Positions 5,254 to 18,680 of a DNA stretch of 20,000 bases are shown in pieces. The stretch is from an uncultured virus (IMG/VR IMGVR_UViG_3300043411_001904) (lineage: Duplodnaviria; Heunggongvirae; Uroviricota; Caudoviricetes). The notes under the pieces are model-generated. The model did not search any database. It had not been told where the DNA came from and worked only from the letters and a program-made list of their open reading frames with translations. Each line of letters starts with the position of its first letter. Positions within the stretch are counted from its first letter, which is position 1. The position numbers and the translations under genes are program-made. The stretch lies in IMG/VR virus record IMGVR_UViG_3300043411_001904. One strand, 5' to 3'.

Positions 5254-5283
5254 AAAACCCTCCGAATTTCGGAGGGTTTTTTT
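5254..5283 (+). terminator. intrinsic terminator after nrdA
   Basis: AAAACCCTCCGAA-T-TTCGGAGGGTTTT inverted repeat followed by a T run. Confidence 0.9.
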
Positions 5284-5294
5284 ATATATACAAT

Positions 5295-5624
5295 ATGAAC
5301 TACAAAATCCAGAAATCAATTGATCAAATTGATGATTTCTTTGGTGTACAAAAAGGAATAAAAGTCACCCGAGCTATTCGAAATAAAGCTAAAATCGCAA
5401 TATCCGATATCAAGTCTAAAGAAATATATAAAAATGACGAGTCTCTCCAAAATCTAATAGATGTCGTTAATGATGTTTTAAAAGCATCAGCTATTGGAAC
5501 AGGATATATACTGATTCCAGGATCTGTTATTCTATTTCCTTTTATCCGAAAAGCTCTACAAAAAAGCAAAATCGAAAAAATAAGAAAAATACTAGAATTG
5601 ACAGTTGAAAAAGACATCAAATAG
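5295..5624 (+). CDS. small hypothetical protein with one hydrophobic segment
   Basis: 109 aa; ATATATA at 5284-5290 just upstream; hydrophobic stretch AIGTGYILIPGSVILFPFI. Confidence 0.65.
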   Translation: MNYKIQKSIDQIDDFFGVQKGIKVTRAIRNKAKIAISDIKSKEIYKNDESLQNLIDVVNDVLKASAIGTGYILIPGSVILFPFIRKALQKSKIEKIRKILELTVEKDIK

Positions 5625-6387
5625 ATTCTTCTAAGTTCCACCCACTAGTCCTCCCCTTCATAATGGGTATTTTTGTCTTTAAACATTTACGAAGAGTAGA
5701 ATATGATATATTATTTTCTCTGCAAAAATTTCTCAATCCATTCGAAATAATAATTTTATCACCACTCGGATTTGTGACAATCCATTTTCTACAAGAATGA
5801 CTCCCATTTATAATAATTCTTTCTTTCGCTTTCTGTGATATTTTACTTTTTGTTTCTTCAGTTAACTTAACTCCCCATCTAGGATTATTTTCTTTGGAAG
5901 TAGAATCAGATATCTTCTTTTTTGTTTCTTCTGAATGTGAACGCTTATAAAGTCTGTGATTTTCTTTTATGGAGATTCTTCTCTTCTCGATTTCTTCTTC
6001 CCACCTATCTCCATATATTTCTTTATATGTTTTTCCAAATAAATTAGGTGGTTCGTTTTTTAAGCACAAATTCAGAAGGGGACCGTCAACTATATCAGAT
6101 ATAAAATCTGATCCAATTTGAGATATCAATTTTATTTCATTTTGATAAGCCAAATTCTCCAATTCTGTATGATTGAATACTTCAATATATGGATTAATTC
6201 CTGTTCTTATCAACTTTGAAATTTTATTCTTGAAAATTGGATTATCAATTCGAGATCTATTTATATGACTTTGATATCGATTTCCTTTTCCCTTACCAAC
6301 ATAAAATGGTTCAAAAAGAAAACAAATCTCATCATAAGAATATTTTCCGTTTTTCCTCGGATCTAAATAAACATAATTATAATACAT
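5617..6387 (-). CDS. free-standing GIY-YIG homing endonuclease with NUMOD3 repeats
   Basis: YNYVYLDP...FYVGKGKGNR GIY-YIG-like N-terminus, conserved E (YQNEIKLI) and N; NUMOD3-like HSEETKKKIS and LTEETKSKIS; putative C-terminal HTH (LRNFCRENNISYSTL). Confidence 0.85.
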   Translation of the reverse strand: MYYNYVYLDPRKNGKYSYDEICFLFEPFYVGKGKGNRYQSHINRSRIDNPIFKNKISKLIRTGINPYIEVFNHTELENLAYQNEIKLISQIGSDFISDIVDGPLLNLCLKNEPPNLFGKTYKEIYGDRWEEEIEKRRISIKENHRLYKRSHSEETKKKISDSTSKENNPRWGVKLTEETKSKISQKAKERIIINGSHSCRKWIVTNPSGDKIIISNGLRNFCRENNISYSTLRKCLKTKIPIMKGRTSGWNLEESI

Positions 6388-7516: not shown

Positions 7517-7565
7517 GATTGGACTATTTTTATGCTAGATATTTGGAAAGTTTTATATATATCAT

Positions 7566-8123
7566 ATGAAATATTTAAATCTGTTTGAATCTCTATCAAA
7601 AATAAAATCTATAAAAAACACAATATATCAAATACATGATATATGTGAATCATTGGAGGACGAATATAAAGGATCATATAAATCATATATTTTGTTTTTC
7701 TTGTGTGATGGAAATACCCATCCAATAAAGAATCCTAGTTCCGATCTAATAAGAAATAATGGTAAAAATACAACATGGTTCTCATTAAGAAAAAAGGAAA
7801 TATACATCAGGGGGTCAAATAACTGGGAATTAGAAGGAATTTATTATAATGAAAATGAAGATCCAAAAGGAAATTTTCAAAAATCAATAGAACTATCTAA
7901 AAAATTAAAAATAGATTTCAAATCCATAACTATTCAAATAGTAATATTAGAAGATCCGGATAATATATTCAATGATCCAACAAAAAAAGAAATACTAGAG
8001 TGTGGTCAAATGGTCAATAATCTAATTAAACATTTACAACAACAACTTGAATTCTTCAAGTTTGATAATTTCGAGGACGACCCTAGAGGATTCTTCATGC
8101 AATGCTCCTTAGAGGATCTATAA
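7566..8123 (+). CDS. hypothetical phage protein (N-terminus MKYLNLFES)
   Basis: 185 aa; ATATATA immediately upstream (7555-7561). Confidence 0.7.
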   Translation: MKYLNLFESLSKIKSIKNTIYQIHDICESLEDEYKGSYKSYILFFLCDGNTHPIKNPSSDLIRNNGKNTTWFSLRKKEIYIRGSNNWELEGIYYNENEDPKGNFQKSIELSKKLKIDFKSITIQIVILEDPDNIFNDPTKKEILECGQMVNNLIKHLQQQLEFFKFDNFEDDPRGFFMQCSLEDL

Positions 8124-9374: not shown

Positions 9375-9488
9375 AAAATCCATTGTTTGAATTCCAATAA
9401 AAATGAACATCGATATATAATTATATTTTTTTGAAGATTTTTTACAACTTTTGTAAATCATCATCATAGAATAAAAACTGAAAATGTT

Positions 9489-9551
9489 CCAGTAGTAACT
9501 TCAAGAGATACTTCAATTTGGTGAAAAAAAACTCTTGATATTTTTCTCTGG
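9489..9551 (+). ncRNA. structured RNA element 1 upstream of Ro60/TROVE (candidate Y-RNA-like or Ro-binding element)
   Basis: CCAG(9489-92)/CTGG(9548-51) outer stem and TCAAGAG(9501-07)/CTCTTGA(9532-38) inner stem; TAGT, ATACTTC and TTTCT motifs are shared with element 2. Confidence 0.55.
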
Positions 9552-9563
9552 TCAATTATATTC

Positions 9564-9704
9564 AGACATAGTGATAAATTAGGATACTTCTACAAAAACA
9601 ATTAGAAAGAGAGAAAGCTTGTCCAAGCAATCTCCACCGAAAAGGGTTAAAAAGGATAGGTTCGTAACCTCAACAACAATCTCCTAAATTAATCTTTCTT
9701 GTCT
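9564..9704 (+). ncRNA. structured RNA element 2 upstream of Ro60/TROVE, with three internal hairpins
   Basis: AGACA(9564-68)/TGTCT(9700-04) outer stem and TTAGGA(9579-84)/TCCTAA(9682-87) inner stem; same TAGT, ATACTTC and TTTCT motifs. Internal hairpins: GAGA..GCTT-GTCC-AAGC..TCTC, ACC-GAAAAG-GGT and AGG-TTCGTAA-CCT. Confidence 0.6.
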
Positions 9705-9711
9705 AAATATC

Positions 9712-9745
9712 AAAGACCAGATAACCATCTGGTCTTTTCATTTTT
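9712..9745 (+). terminator. intrinsic terminator or attenuator between the RNA elements and the TROVE gene
   Basis: AAAGACCAGAT-AACC-ATCTGGTCTTT perfect 11-bp stem followed by TCATTTTT. Confidence 0.8.
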
Positions 9746-9762
9746 AAAAAATAACATATATT

Positions 9763-11259
9763 ATGTCAAAATTTAACACAACTCTTCAGAAGCCAAAAAA
9801 ATCCATCAATATAGCAGGTGGAGAATCATATAACCAATCTAAGAAGATAGAATTAGTATCAATATTATTAACATCTTTTGTCAATGATCAATTCTATAGA
9901 TCATCTAATGATACATTAGTTCGACTAAAAGAGTTAATCCGAGAAGTTGATCCTCTATTTGCGGCTAAAGCAGCTCTATTTGCAAGAGATAAATTTGGAA
10001 TGAGATCGATAAGTCATGTTTTAGCATCAGAAATCGCACATAATCTAGGAGGCAAGGAATGGGCAAAAAGTTTTTATGATAAAATAGTTGTAAGACTAGA
10101 TGACATGACAGAAATAGTATCCTATTACCTAAATAACAACACTGATAAGATAAATCCAAAATTTCCTAATTCAATGAAGAAAGGATTTGCGTCAGCATTT
10201 GATAGATATAATGAATATCATTTAGCTAAATATAGAGGTGAGAACAAGGAGGTCAAATTAGTTGATATAGTCAACTTAGTACACCCAATACCAACTGAAT
10301 CAAATGCTGAGGCTCTAAAAAGTCTTATAAATGGCACACTTAGAAATCTAGACACATGGGAATCCAAATTATCAAAGGCTGGTCAGTCGGAAGATGGTGA
10401 CGTCAATCAACTAAAATCAGAAGCATGGAAAGACTTAATAGAATCTAAAAAATTAGGATATTTCGCTGCCCTGAGAAACATCAAAAATATTTTAAATCAA
10501 TCTCCTGAACAAATAGATAATCTATGCTCTATCCTGACGAATGAAAAGATGATACAATCATCTAGAGTGATGCCATTCAGGTTCGATACTGCCTACAATG
10601 AGATCAAATCTCTAGGATCATCAAAGGATGTAAGAAAATGCTTAGTTGCTATAGATCAAGCATTGAACATATCAACATGTAATGTTCCAAAATTAGATGG
10701 AGAAACTTTAGTTGTAATTGATTCATCTAGTTCAATGAAAAGCAGACCATCTAGGACAGGACTATTGGGATCAACAAATATTCCTGATTCAATGAAGGAA
10801 AAGCCATACCAGATAGCATCCCTATTCGGTGCTATATTAGCTAAATCTAACATGTGTGATGTCATGACATTTGATAGAGATGCTAGATATGTGAATTATA
10901 ATCCAAATGATTCAGTCTTGACCATTAAAGATAGTTTTGTTTTCACGGGAGGTGCAACAAATTTCCACGCTATATTTGAATCAGCAAATAAAGCATACGA
11001 TAATATCATCATTCTAAGTGATTGCCAAGGCTGGGTAGGAAAAACAACTCCAACAGAGGCTTTCAAAAACTACAAATCTAGATTTAATTGCAATCCATAT
11101 ATCTATTCATGGGATTTAGCTGGATATGGATCATTACAATTTCCAGAAAATAACGTATTTTGTTTAGCAGGATTTTCAGAGAAGGTTTTTGATTTAATGT
11201 CAGCTCTGAAAGAAGACAAAAGAGCATTAATAAACGAAATCAAATCAATCTCTCTTTAA
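9763..11259 (+). CDS. Ro60/Rsr-like TROVE-domain RNA-binding protein with C-terminal vWA domain
   Basis: NIAGGESY, DQFY, ARDKFGMRS, YHLAKYR, LVDIVNLVHP, TWESKLS, LGYFAALRNI and SRVMPFRF; MIDAS DSSSSM...GATN...LSD. 498 aa. Confidence 0.93.
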   Translation: MSKFNTTLQKPKKSINIAGGESYNQSKKIELVSILLTSFVNDQFYRSSNDTLVRLKELIREVDPLFAAKAALFARDKFGMRSISHVLASEIAHNLGGKEWAKSFYDKIVVRLDDMTEIVSYYLNNNTDKINPKFPNSMKKGFASAFDRYNEYHLAKYRGENKEVKLVDIVNLVHPIPTESNAEALKSLINGTLRNLDTWESKLSKAGQSEDGDVNQLKSEAWKDLIESKKLGYFAALRNIKNILNQSPEQIDNLCSILTNEKMIQSSRVMPFRFDTAYNEIKSLGSSKDVRKCLVAIDQALNISTCNVPKLDGETLVVIDSSSSMKSRPSRTGLLGSTNIPDSMKEKPYQIASLFGAILAKSNMCDVMTFDRDARYVNYNPNDSVLTIKDSFVFTGGATNFHAIFESANKAYDNIIILSDCQGWVGKTTPTEAFKNYKSRFNCNPYIYSWDLAGYGSLQFPENNVFCLAGFSEKVFDLMSALKEDKRALINEIKSISL

Positions 11260-14586: not shown

Positions 14587-14950
14587 GGGGGCGTTAATGG
14601 AAATTGATTCATGACGTGAGGATGGTTGAGCAAGCATCGGTTGGTGGAGTCCGATTAAAATAAACTATCAAAACACAGCAAACGGCAACGTTTCTGAAGT
14701 AGGAACCCGTGAAGATCTAGTAGCGGCTCTACGCAACAATATCCTCGTTGCTAACGAGGTCGAAGTAGCCTAATAAGCTCTCGTAAAAGTTAGCACCTGA
14801 TTCAAACAGGTAAAAAGTTGATAGTTTTTTGTGAGCTGTTTTTGAGTCGAAACAACTCTCTTGTTTGAATGTTTAGAAAAACGTTCTAAGCCTGTGAACG
14901 ATTGATTTGATTCAATCATGAAAAAATCGGTTCGAATCCGATCGCCTCCA
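14587..14950 (+). ncRNA. ssrA: tmRNA (transfer-messenger RNA)
   Basis: Acceptor stem GGGGGCG/CGCCTCC with G3-U wobble and discriminator A; T-arm ATCGG-TTCGAAT-CCGAT; TTCATGA/TCATGAA helix 2; internal tag ORF 14678-14773; 364 nt. Confidence 0.93.
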
Positions 14951-14952
14951 CT

Positions 14953-14988
14953 AGAAAGAGGACACTTAAAGTGTCCTCTTTCTTTTTT
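14953..14988 (+). terminator. intrinsic terminator after tmRNA
   Basis: AGAAAGAGGACACTT-A-AAGTGTCCTCTTTCT inverted repeat followed by a T run. Confidence 0.9.
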
Positions 14989-16346: not shown

Positions 16347-17150
16347 ATGATTGCAAAAGATATCAAAGACAAAATATTTGAAAAGAAATTCTATGTGTAT
16401 CAGCTAATTGACCCACTCACAAATTTAGTTTTTTACATTGGGAAAGGAAATGGATATCGATGTTTCACACACGAATACCAATCCAAAAATGGAAATATAC
16501 CACATAATAATAAACATCTATTCAACAAGATTATTAAAATACTAAACACTGGAGACAAAATAGTATATAAAATAATTTTTACATCTGATATGGAAGAGGA
16601 ATGTTATGACCTTGAGGAAAAATCCATTCGGGAATATGGAATAGAAAAATTATGTAACATAGAATTGTCTAATAGGGGAGTCAAACACACAAATGAAACT
16701 CGAAAGAAAATATCAAAATCCCACACCGGTAAAATTCTATCAGAGCAGACTAAAGAGAAGCTCAGAATTATAAATATTGATAAAAAACAATCTGAAGAAA
16801 CAAAGAAGAAAAGATCAGATAAATTGAAAGGGAAGTCCACTCACATGAAAGGCAAAAACCACTCTGAAGAAACTAAGAGAAAAATATCCGAATCAAATAT
16901 TGGCAAAAAACACACAGAAGAGAGCATTCAAAAAATGAGAATTAAACACAAAGGTAAAATAATATCCGAAGAACAAAAAAGAAAAATTAAAGAAACTCTA
17001 ACAAAAGAAAGGATATCAGTAGTTAAAAATTGTGAAATATGTAATACAGAATTCGAAATAATAATAATTAAAGACGGCTCAAATCGAATAAAAAAATGTT
17101 GCAGTGGTAAATGTTCTTCAACATTGGCGAATAAAACTAGAATTAAATGA
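16347..17150 (+). CDS. free-standing GIY-YIG homing endonuclease with multiple NUMOD3 repeats
   Basis: FYVYQLIDP...FYIGKGNGYR; repeats HTNETRKKIS, QSEETKKKRS, HSEETKRKIS and HTEESIQKMR; C-terminal CEIC...CCSGKC. Confidence 0.87.
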   Translation: MIAKDIKDKIFEKKFYVYQLIDPLTNLVFYIGKGNGYRCFTHEYQSKNGNIPHNNKHLFNKIIKILNTGDKIVYKIIFTSDMEEECYDLEEKSIREYGIEKLCNIELSNRGVKHTNETRKKISKSHTGKILSEQTKEKLRIINIDKKQSEETKKKRSDKLKGKSTHMKGKNHSEETKRKISESNIGKKHTEESIQKMRIKHKGKIISEEQKRKIKETLTKERISVVKNCEICNTEFEIIIIKDGSNRIKKCCSGKCSSTLANKTRIK

Positions 17151-17848: not shown

Positions 17849-18535
17849 TTACGAAAGTAATTCCAACTTACCTCTACTAATATTCTTATAAGACGTCTCT
17901 TTATTTGTCAGATGGTCAATAACAATATCATCCTTTACTCTATAGGTCCTTCTCTTCTGAGATCGACTAGAATTACCGACTTGAGAAAATCTATCGTCAT
18001 AGACAGACTTATCATGCTTTTTCTCTTCAATATTTTTAACTCTCTGATACAATCTATCCCAAGCTATTTCCTCATTTTTACATTGATCTCTTGTGTCTTG
18101 ACACTTAACTTGAATTCCTGATGGTGTGTGAGTTAATTGAACACAAGATGATGTTTTGTTAACATTTTGGCCCCCCTTCCCGGAACTCCGGATACATTTT
18201 CGAATAACTTTTGATCTATCAAATTGAAACTGAAGTTGGTATTCGGGATCAATTACAGCGATTGTAACGATAGATGTCTGTGTTCTACCCCTCTTCTCTG
18301 TAGGTGGAATTCGAATAAACCTATGTCCCCCTCCCTCATTACCGTAATAGGATTTAGACCCCTTACCAATGAATTGAATAGAAGCATACCCATCTCTCCT
18401 CTCAAGTACTTTCGATTCAAAGCTATTTACTCTGGCAGATTTTAGATAGATATTCATCATATCTTCTACTATTAATTTTGAATCCGATCCACCTTCGGAT
18501 GCCCTAATTTCTAGGACTATTGATTCCTTTTTCAT
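17849..18535 (-). CDS. short class I peptide release factor homolog (RF1-like PxT, GGQ; lacks domain 1, PrfH-like size)
   Basis: LEIRASEGG, EGGGHRFIRIPPTEKRGRTQTS, RSSGKGGQNVNKTSSCV.LTH.PSGI.V.CQ..R.Q..N, RS.KRRTY and VIDH. 228 aa. Confidence 0.9.
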   Translation of the reverse strand: MKKESIVLEIRASEGGSDSKLIVEDMMNIYLKSARVNSFESKVLERRDGYASIQFIGKGSKSYYGNEGGGHRFIRIPPTEKRGRTQTSIVTIAVIDPEYQLQFQFDRSKVIRKCIRSSGKGGQNVNKTSSCVQLTHTPSGIQVKCQDTRDQCKNEEIAWDRLYQRVKNIEEKKHDKSVYDDRFSQVGNSSRSQKRRTYRVKDDIVIDHLTNKETSYKNISRGKLELLS

Positions 18536-18592
18536 TTTTATATGTTTATTTTTTGGTTTAAATGCAAAAACTCTCCTACTTGAAGAAGTTCC

Positions 18593-18628
18593 TCAACCAA
18601 AAACAAACATATTTATTGAAATCAACAT
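18593..18628 (-). promoter_or_regulatory. upstream ORF MLISINMFVFG-UGA, in frame with the release factor gene
   Basis: ATG at 18628 and TGA at 18595-18593, then 19 sense codons to the release factor ATG; overlaps the 5' arm of an inverted repeat. Confidence 0.6.
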
Positions 18629-18680
18629 AGTGTAAATATACAAAATTTTATTTAATATATATTAAAAGTTTATTCTATAA

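Follow-up and report, generated by a model that had tools for sequence, protein, structure and literature searches.

To our knowledge, the supply of a release factor (RF) is known to be under feedback control only for RF2, through the frameshift in prfB. For other genes, leader-peptide attenuation is well described (ermC/ermB, cat/cmlA, SecM-secA): a ribosome held on a short leader frees a masked downstream initiation region. TnaC requires a specific arrest peptide as well as free tryptophan, and its target is Rho-dependent transcription termination. Here we describe a locus in a stretch of 20,000 nucleotides (nt) from an uncultured virus of the Caudoviricetes (IMG/VR record IMGVR_UViG_3300043411_001904; "the window" denotes this whole stretch), in which a short upstream open reading frame (uORF) ending in UGA overlaps a predicted hairpin that covers the translation initiation region of a release factor gene. 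At tnaC (PMC8450073), the action of RF2 at the leader UGA is inhibited by tryptophan. The bacterial prfB motif is treated in parts of PMC12421855, where TAG is reported as not found and programmed frameshifting as not shown for prfA. Among viruses, a class-I RF gene of Mimivirus and Megavirus involves both readthrough and frameshifting according to the abstract of Jeudy et al. 2012 (PMC3521657), and the text of 10.1101/2021.08.26.457843 that concerns release factors places RF1 in TGA-recoded and RF2 in TAG-recoded phages, within code-change modules. Huge phages encode RF1, RF2 and transfer-messenger RNAs (tmRNAs), and those with genomes above 634 kb are predicted to replicate in Bacteroidetes (PMC7162821, in the sections on these genes and hosts). 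In the literature searched, with subscription-only papers and supplements outside its scope, no description was found of uORF-hairpin leaders or of stop codons acting as gates within bacteriophage RF genes.

The leader of the window lies in a 145-nt divergent intergenic spacer, and its elements are the following.

18633..18640, minus strand: promoter-like -7 box TATATTTA, read from the sequence against the Bacteroidota sigma-A consensus TAnnTTTG
18593..18628, minus strand: uORF of 11 codons plus stop, MLISINMFVFG*, read from the sequence and predicted to be leaderless
18595..18612, minus strand: 5' arm of the hairpin, ATATGTTTGTTTTTGGTT, within uORF codons 6-11 (sequence, fold and duplex)
18593..18595, minus strand: UGA stop of the uORF, at the 3' end of the hairpin 5' arm (sequence)
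18559..18592, minus strand: apical part of the long hairpin, an inner imperfect stem-loop with a conserved UAGGAGA (predicted folds)
18540..18558, minus strand: 3' arm of the hairpin, AACCAAAAAATAAACATAT, which is the A-rich RF translation initiation region (sequence, fold and duplex)
18518..18527, minus strand: 3' partner, in RF codons 3-6, of an outer 10-bp helix formed with uORF positions 18627-18618 (predicted minimum free energy (MFE) fold)
17849..18535, minus strand: RF1-type class-I release factor gene, 228 amino acids (aa), TAA stop (open reading frame (ORF), profile searches and alignment)

The -7 box fits the consensus at seven of eight positions, its counterpart in two related RF loci (L001 and L003; L numbers denote such loci throughout) being TATATTTG, and a spacer of 4 nt (CACT) separates it from the uORF ATG at 18628-18626. 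The uORF reads ATG TTG ATT TCA ATA AAT ATG TTT GTT TTT GGT TGA. Its arm ATATGTTTGTTTTTGGTT is complementary to AACCAAAAAATAAACATAT, and the final base of this arm is the first T of the TGA. The 3' arm includes the AAAAAATAAA box that is found family-wide and stops 4 nt short of the RF ATG (18535-18533), which is linked to the uORF TGA by 19 sense codons (GTSSSRRVFAFKPKNKHIK) in the same frame and with no stop. An earlier note on this DNA had described the box, the 4-nt gap, the TGA-ending uORF and the open frame into the RF ATG, all of which were recovered when the minus strand was read again; the pairing of 18612-18595 with 18558-18540 that it proposed, with the UGA at the end of the 5' arm, is likewise present in the sequence and in the computed fold. 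The UAGGAGA of the apical loop (18568-18580, minus strand) is kept in L001 and contains an AGGAG resembling a Shine-Dalgarno sequence, in a lineage expected to initiate without Shine-Dalgarno pairing. A second mini-ORF, running from a TTG after this AGGAG to a TAA 2 nt before the RF ATG, was considered and discarded, as its L001 version stops after two codons.

By computed folding energies, the hairpin of the window exceeds what is expected by chance. The 126-nt leader RNA folds at -26.5 kcal/mol (z -2.98), a value equalled by 1 of 200 dinucleotide shuffles, and the duplex of the RF start region (-22..+6) with the upstream leader reaches -16.6 kcal/mol (z -3.7; 1/200 shuffles). When pairing was forbidden from -15 to +9 around the uORF stop, the predicted mean unpaired probability of the RF start (-20..+5) rose from 0.39 in the free RNA to 0.72 in the window. 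The same calculation gave a rise from 0.25 to 0.78 in L001, from 0.33 to 0.60 in L003, from 0.37 to 0.74 in L014, from 0.39 to 0.80 in L012 and from 0.29 to 0.58 in L110.

The gene behind this leader matches the RF-1 domain of Pfam (E 5e-28) and only positions 99-194 of the 194 positions of PCRF. Against the prfA profiles it scores 176.7 bits (NCBIfam TIGR00019, cut-off 400) and 165.1 bits (PRK00591, cut-off 423), with matches beginning at profile positions 103 and 111, respectively; the scores are 126.5 bits against prfB and 78.3 bits against PrfH (TIGR03072), the latter below the cut-off of 166.65. In the alignment, the protein carries GKGGQ (the GGQ motif) and a PPT tripeptide within RIPPTEKRGRTQTS. 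Because the profile matches start this late and both GGQ and PPT are present, the product is, as judged from its sequence, an RF1-type class-I release factor without domain 1. Ito and colleagues reportedly assigned UAA/UAG specificity to the PxT tripeptide in 2000. The protein is 44-67% identical to 16 aligned relatives and has 272 relatives in IMG/VR, a family of short RF1-type proteins of about 225 aa on large phage contigs; its top matches in the phage collection are uncultured phage records of 485-735 kb. Many short RF genes of this family (33-45% identity) also occur on Myxococcota contigs (L253-L329), examples being the complete Minicystis rosea chromosome (L305) and a 6.3-Mb contig of Nannocystis sp. 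RBIL2 (L328), and the family is therefore not confined to phages.

The window is part of a huge phage that uses the standard genetic code. Under code 11, ORFs of 100 aa or more account for 0.87-0.91 of the window, of G001 (the contig of L001) and of G002 (a 134.9-kb IMG/VR contig, CheckV 24% complete, whose ribonucleotide reductase large subunit is 85% identical to that of the window), all three being genome fragments; codes 4 and 15 bring no gain. Among 6018 codons of the window, 59 are TGG and none is an in-frame TGA. A code 4 reading, in which TGA would encode Trp and the factor would be extended to 264 aa, was rejected on this codon usage, on the unchanged coding density and on the broken frame in L001.

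The design of the leader recurs in relatives with other sequences. Loci were drawn from IMG/VR (4 loci plus the best 80 of 272), metagenomes (77), the phage collection (6) and GTDB (best 80 of 117), and leader types were assigned by inspection, giving 21 non-redundant relatives' leaders of about seven unrelated sequences. In all 21, the partner arm of the RF start region lies inside the upstream ORF or directly after it. The window's own sequence (type A) recurs only in L001 among the 170 nt upstream of each RF start that were compared, with a single I-to-V change in the uORF peptide; the L001 duplex of start region and leader has a z of -4.76 (0/200 shuffles). Pattern scans of IMG/VR for the type A leader returned the L001 contig only; of 71 hits to a 16-mer and 19 hits to a 19-mer, one each lies beside an RF gene.

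Type B, the largest group (L003, L017, L014, L027, L013, L105, L018, L019, L015 and L103), has a -7 box and, behind it, a uORF built as M-(K/F..)-[UGA]-(L/I)-H-(N/K)-Y-UAG, the UGA position being replaced by TTT in L018 and L019 and by AGA in L105. Its last uORF codons and UAG (CATAATTATTAG) are exactly complementary to CTAATAATTATG, which includes the RF start codon; in L015 and L103, the start region AGTCATGG pairs instead with CTATGACT, which includes the UGA. Upstream-ORF variants (L005, L125, L106 and L026) have a longer ORF that ends in a module of UGA, three to four codons and UAG, and L125 shows a double change from A-U to G-C in the helix. In type C (L012 and L016), longer uORFs end in ...I-UGA-LTK(S/L)-UAG and the arm (AGTGAcTTTTT or TTTTATTATTT) begins at or just past the UAG. 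Other leaders are those of L110 (MKNIFRYGLLS-UAG), L002 (23 codons, UAG) and L119 (UGA, four codons, UAG).

For most leaders outside type A, MFE folds recover the long-range helix. With 200 shuffles per locus, duplexes of start region and leader are strong in L110 (z -5.36, 0/200), L014 (z -4.68, 1/200), L106 (z -4.3, 0/200), L125 (z -3.61, 1/200), L027 (z -3.01, 1/200), L019 (z -2.8, 0/200) and L105 (z -2.69, 3/200), and weaker in L003, L013, L015, L018 and L026, for which 8, 12, 17, 24 and 34 of the 200 shuffles, respectively, were as good. In a type-B alignment of 12 rows, the two helices contain 92.5% standard pairs; sliding the 3' partners by 1-3 columns lowers this to 26-56%. Taken by itself, the long-range helix has 93.6%, with two pairs changed on both sides and 9 of 12 pairs invariant, so that covariation within the type is modest. 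The replacement of both partners between types is the stronger argument. A comparison with relatives, which the earlier note had put forward as a check, gave a divided answer: the uORF and arm design recurs, and covariation is absent from the window's own leader type.

Which stop codon ends the upstream ORF beside the arm is far from even. It is UAG in 19 of 21 leaders, UGA in two (window and L001) and UAA in none, and 14 of the 19 UAG leaders carry an in-frame UGA 3-4 codons before the UAG. If the footprint is assumed to reach from about -15 to +12 relative to the stop, a ribosome positioned with an upstream-ORF stop in the A site would shield 7 nt of the arm or more in every leader (15 nt in the window, 16 nt in L001); in L103 and L119, this holds for the in-frame UGA rather than for the final UAG. 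UAG and UGA are each read by one release factor, UAA by both. Among ORFs of at least 100 aa, TAA, TAG and TGA end 14, 5 and 2 in the window (n = 21), 28, 6 and 10 in G001 (n = 44), and 118, 4 and 14 in G002 (n = 136). Since UAA is the main gene stop and yet absent from all 21 leaders, stop identity would matter, as UAA should otherwise dominate. L107 is a possible exception to this absence: there, a possible arm lies beside a UAA-ending ORF, and the RF gene directly follows a longer ORF; it was left out of the count. As the loci are related and comprise only about seven distinct types, the stop counts overstate independence.

Stop codons also interrupt the RF genes of the relatives themselves. 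In 23 of 26 close-relative rows, an in-frame stop occurs within the gene, always at codons 38-53, while all 26 genes end in TAA. The codon aligned with Gln54 of the window is TGA in 18 rows and TAG in three (two of these being the same contig), and the gate TGA stands mostly in the context AT(T/C/A) TGA (C/A)T(N). Further IMG/VR loci contain an in-frame TGA and/or TAG in 30 of 34 cases. In L123, L124 and L128, a TGA (codon 43) and a TAG (codon 51) occur in-frame in one RF gene, which no single stop reassignment explains. A single frame was not obtained for another 23 distant loci; of these, at least 21 have a prfB-like +1 site, mostly with GGAGG upstream, reading CTT TGA in 17 and CTT TAG in five (L129, L134, L143, L155 and L162, all with PPT-type short RF genes). 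The PPT is kept in 21 of the 23, L133 having PPN and L150 PST. In the standard-code contig G002, only two coding-strand frames show a clean interruption by a single TGA, the RF gene being one of them, and the stops are therefore gates rather than signs of a general code change. Around 1506-1530 of L004/L025, the RF start METI needs a +1 shift to continue into VIEIRA, while the close relative L024 needs none; either an assembly error or a further recoding site could account for this.

The 228 codons of the window's gene run without an internal stop, and neither a slippery site nor a frameshift is present. At the gate position it has CAA, the two other gate-free genes having TGT (L001) and CTT (L012); all three have a UGA in the uORF. 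UGA dependence seems to be kept by either the gene gate or the leader. Compared with the UGA-then-UAG mini-ORFs of the relatives, the window has a single UGA and no UAG, with the arm inside the uORF and no gate in the gene.

Regarding translation of the uORF, a TAnnTTT(G/A) box stands 4, 7 or 10 nt before the uORF ATG at 12 loci, with a 4-nt spacer in the window, L001, L003, L013, L018 and L019. As the flavobacterial sigma-A box is placed at -12 to -5 in the promoter passages of PMC9723704, a 4-nt spacer predicts that the transcript starts at the A of the uORF AUG, i.e., that the uORF is leaderless. TATATAT-N4-ATG is found at the starts of the window ORFs 5295-5624 and 7566-8123 (boxes within 5280-5297 and 7551-7568, plus strand), and by this spacing the genes starting at 5295 and 7566 are probably leaderless as well, arranged like the RF uORF. 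Within types B and C, the distances from ATG to stop differ by whole codons, and the uORF retains its frame and position across leader types. Between types, the uORF peptides show no relation to one another, and this speaks against a specific arrest peptide.

These observations of sequence geometry, of predicted structure with its statistics and of recurrence in relatives can be joined into one mechanism, to which we assign about an even chance: a ribosome waiting at the uORF stop would hold the hairpin open, and the factor would be made when termination at UGA, and hence by RF2, is slow. For the transcription start, the translation of the uORF, the dependence on stop identity and the physiological trigger, the steps below are what we infer. 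Transcription from the -7 box would start at or beside the uORF AUG, and translation of the uORF would then begin with no leader or almost none. In RNA free of ribosomes, the A-rich RF initiation region would be masked by pairing with the second half of the uORF. Initiation in Bacteroidota does not depend on Shine-Dalgarno pairing, so that access to the A-rich stretch is important. With the uORF UGA in the A site, a waiting ribosome would occupy some 15 of the arm's 18 nt and keep the RF start region single-stranded and open to initiation, and after peptide release the hairpin would re-form. RF synthesis would rise with the dwell time at the UGA, be it through slow RF2-dependent termination or through UGA suppression. 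In the UAG versions, the feedback would act on RF1-type activity, that is, on host RF1 plus the phage factor.

The PPT motif bears on what is sensed. As the factor is RF1-type, sensing of UGA would report on host RF2 and would not amount to prfB-like autoregulation, the precedent that the earlier note had named. An RF1-type factor answering to RF2 could be understood from the phage genes, which mostly end in UAA: loss of RF2 would raise the need for a reader of UAA. Alternatively, the PPT factor may read UGA as well.

Several points weigh against a termination-sensing leader. Unless the factor reads UGA, its RF1-type motif means that UGA sensing is not self-sensing, and the relatives mostly place UAG beside the arm, the UGA-only form of the window being the minority. 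The exact leader is limited to the window, L001 and an L001-like DNA contig in run X2. From -580 to +140, window and L001 share 90-100% nucleotide identity and the leader is no better kept than its flanks, so this comparison was set aside as proof of selection on the leader; their 34 predicted pairs show three one-sided compatible changes, no two-sided change and no broken pair. In L001, indels past the TGA break the frame, and an in-frame TAA stands 12 nt before the RF ATG. The outer helix of the MFE fold includes the predicted 5'-terminal AUG and could thereby impede initiation on the uORF, and leaderless transcripts make up only 5.5% of the mRNAs in a flavobacterium according to the transcript survey in PMC9723704. 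The leader helix was not seen in 9 of 29 non-redundant loci with at least 50% RF identity (L021, L112, L024, L004, L109, L108, L006, L023 and L028), at several of which the RF gene comes after coding sequence and lacks a leader of its own. Counts of such related loci are not independent events, and both the set of 21 and the division into about seven types are our own sorting. In two RNA and two DNA runs (24 runs listed, two of them RNA), no RNA contig covered the leader or the RF start, a result uninformative on expression; the RNA contigs in the mapped runs lie only on part of the divergent gene.

Among the alternatives, plain translational coupling fares best, although we regard it as rather unlikely. 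Any passage of ribosomes along the uORF would then open the hairpin and RF output would follow uORF initiation, with stop identity and termination rate irrelevant. The geometry it requires is equal to that of the termination-sensing leader, the type A leader offers no covariation that ties function to the stop, and the position of the arm relative to the stop varies among types (overlapping, 5' or 3'). What coupling leaves unaccounted for is the stop itself: UAA, the main stop of these genomes, ends none of the 21 upstream ORFs, the in-frame UGA ahead of UAG is kept in 14 of 19 leaders, and the RF genes are themselves gated by stops.

An improbable reading is that the leader senses readthrough or suppression of UGA, by near-cognate tRNA-Trp or a phage suppressor tRNA, with ribosomes melting the whole hairpin and yielding either an extended factor (window) or termination at UAA before the RF AUG followed by reinitiation (L001). 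The open frame from the UGA into the RF ATG of the window would allow the former and the TAA 12 nt before the ATG of L001 the latter, and the relatives do need UGA readthrough inside the gene, in the context UGA-C/A. Types B and C moreover have a UAG 3-4 codons after the UGA. The region past the UGA, however, gathers indels, so that the frame is lost between window and L001; the context in the window is UGA-G and not the AUU UGA C of the family, and the 28 tRNAs of G002 included no suppressor tRNA, nor did the window or G001 yield one, all three being fragments. The N-terminally extended product that the earlier note had envisaged is accordingly not conserved. The rest of that proposal fares better: its architecture, a uORF with a start-masking hairpin, recurs in 21 relatives, and its logic of stop sensing, as a proposed mode of regulation, is upheld by the comparison.

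Least probable of all is that there is no translational switch, the hairpin serving mRNA stability or processing or belonging to a divergent promoter and the uORF being a chance ORF in an AT-rich spacer: the divergent spacer of 145 nt, a type A leader known from two near-identical sequences and sigma-70-type promoter matches that are not enriched (7 observed, 10.6 expected) would fit, but the z-scores of fold and duplex, the recurrence of arm and start-region pairing with unrelated sequences and always by the end of an upstream ORF, and the lack at the leader of any intrinsic terminator-like site or of any Rfam match above chance level (only mir-190, E 0.94) do not.

Extending the termination-sensing leader to the family, we put forward, tentatively and as possible rather than likely, that huge phages of Bacteroidota have a family of sensors in which leaderless mini-ORFs ending in UAG and/or UGA let the terminating ribosome unmask an RF1-type gene, and that in the window the UGA of the leader has replaced the gate of the gene. 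If so, no autoregulation of an RF1-type factor would have been described before, and host RF2 would be cross-sensed as well; if a short factor of PPT type reads UGA, all gates would be self-sensing.

Elsewhere, the window encodes a DnaB-like helicase, both subunits of a class I ribonucleotide reductase, two GIY-YIG/NUMOD3 endonucleases, a Ro60/TROVE protein, a vWA protein and a NADAR protein. Among 22 window ORFs checked, the only TGA-ending genes are those of the GIY-YIG/NUMOD3 endonucleases (5617-6387, minus strand; 16347-17150, plus strand), which suggests that these homing-endonuclease genes have an origin apart from the TAA-rich phage backbone. A phage tmRNA lies at 14587-14953 on the plus strand (Rfam RF00023, 39.3 bits, E 9.7e-13, below the gathering score of 47) and was missed by ARAGORN. 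It begins with GGGGGCG, ends in a tRNA-like part GGTTCGAATCC...CCTCCAC, has an unusually long possible tag frame that closes with TAA TAA, and is preceded by GTGTATATTTGTATTATC, a box of the same type as that before the RF uORF. The Ro60/TROVE gene (9763-11259, plus strand) follows a 390-nt stretch (9375-9762) that has no long ORF and ends in a hairpin. This stretch could hold a Y-RNA-like partner; Rfam returned nothing at E <= 1 in it.

Should the termination-sensing leader hold true, it would be a second and mechanistically different control of release factor supply, for an RF1-type factor and used by a virus. Huge phages would then monitor the termination capacity of their host and go beyond supplementing it. 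This bears on the moves of phages towards stop-codon recoding, and such leaders would be compact natural reporters of RF1 and RF2 activity.

Of the described systems, the prfB +1 frameshift is alike in that the output of an RF gene is set by the speed at which one stop codon is recognized, and the distant relatives carry a site of this kind, with GGAGG..CTT TGA in 17 loci and CTT TAG in five. In the window, by contrast, the stop belongs to a uORF of its own and would influence initiation by way of RNA structure, its context is GGT TGA GGA with neither an upstream GGAGG nor a stop in the gene, and the sensed codon is UGA while the factor is RF1-type. With the erm/cat class, the window shares, by prediction, a short uORF that overlaps the hairpin arm masking a downstream initiation region. 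Those leaders stall at a sense codon or an arrest peptide in response to a drug or to secretion status, whereas the candidate hold in the window is a stop codon, the peptide is not conserved between phage leader types and the regulated gene encodes a termination factor. TnaC-tnaA likewise has a leader ORF ending in UGA with termination as the regulated step; the phage leaders differ from it in having no conserved peptide and in their proposed output, translational unmasking. The RF of Mimivirus, in the abstract of PMC3521657, is a viral termination factor made across internal stops and autoregulatory, but it is of eukaryotic/archaeal type, belongs to a giant virus of amoebae and is recoded within the ORF, with no uORF or hairpin described there. 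What is known, then, is the leader-held ribosome that unmasks a start; what would be new is the hold by termination at a factor-specific stop, its placement before an RF1-type gene and the leaderless form predicted for the uORF.

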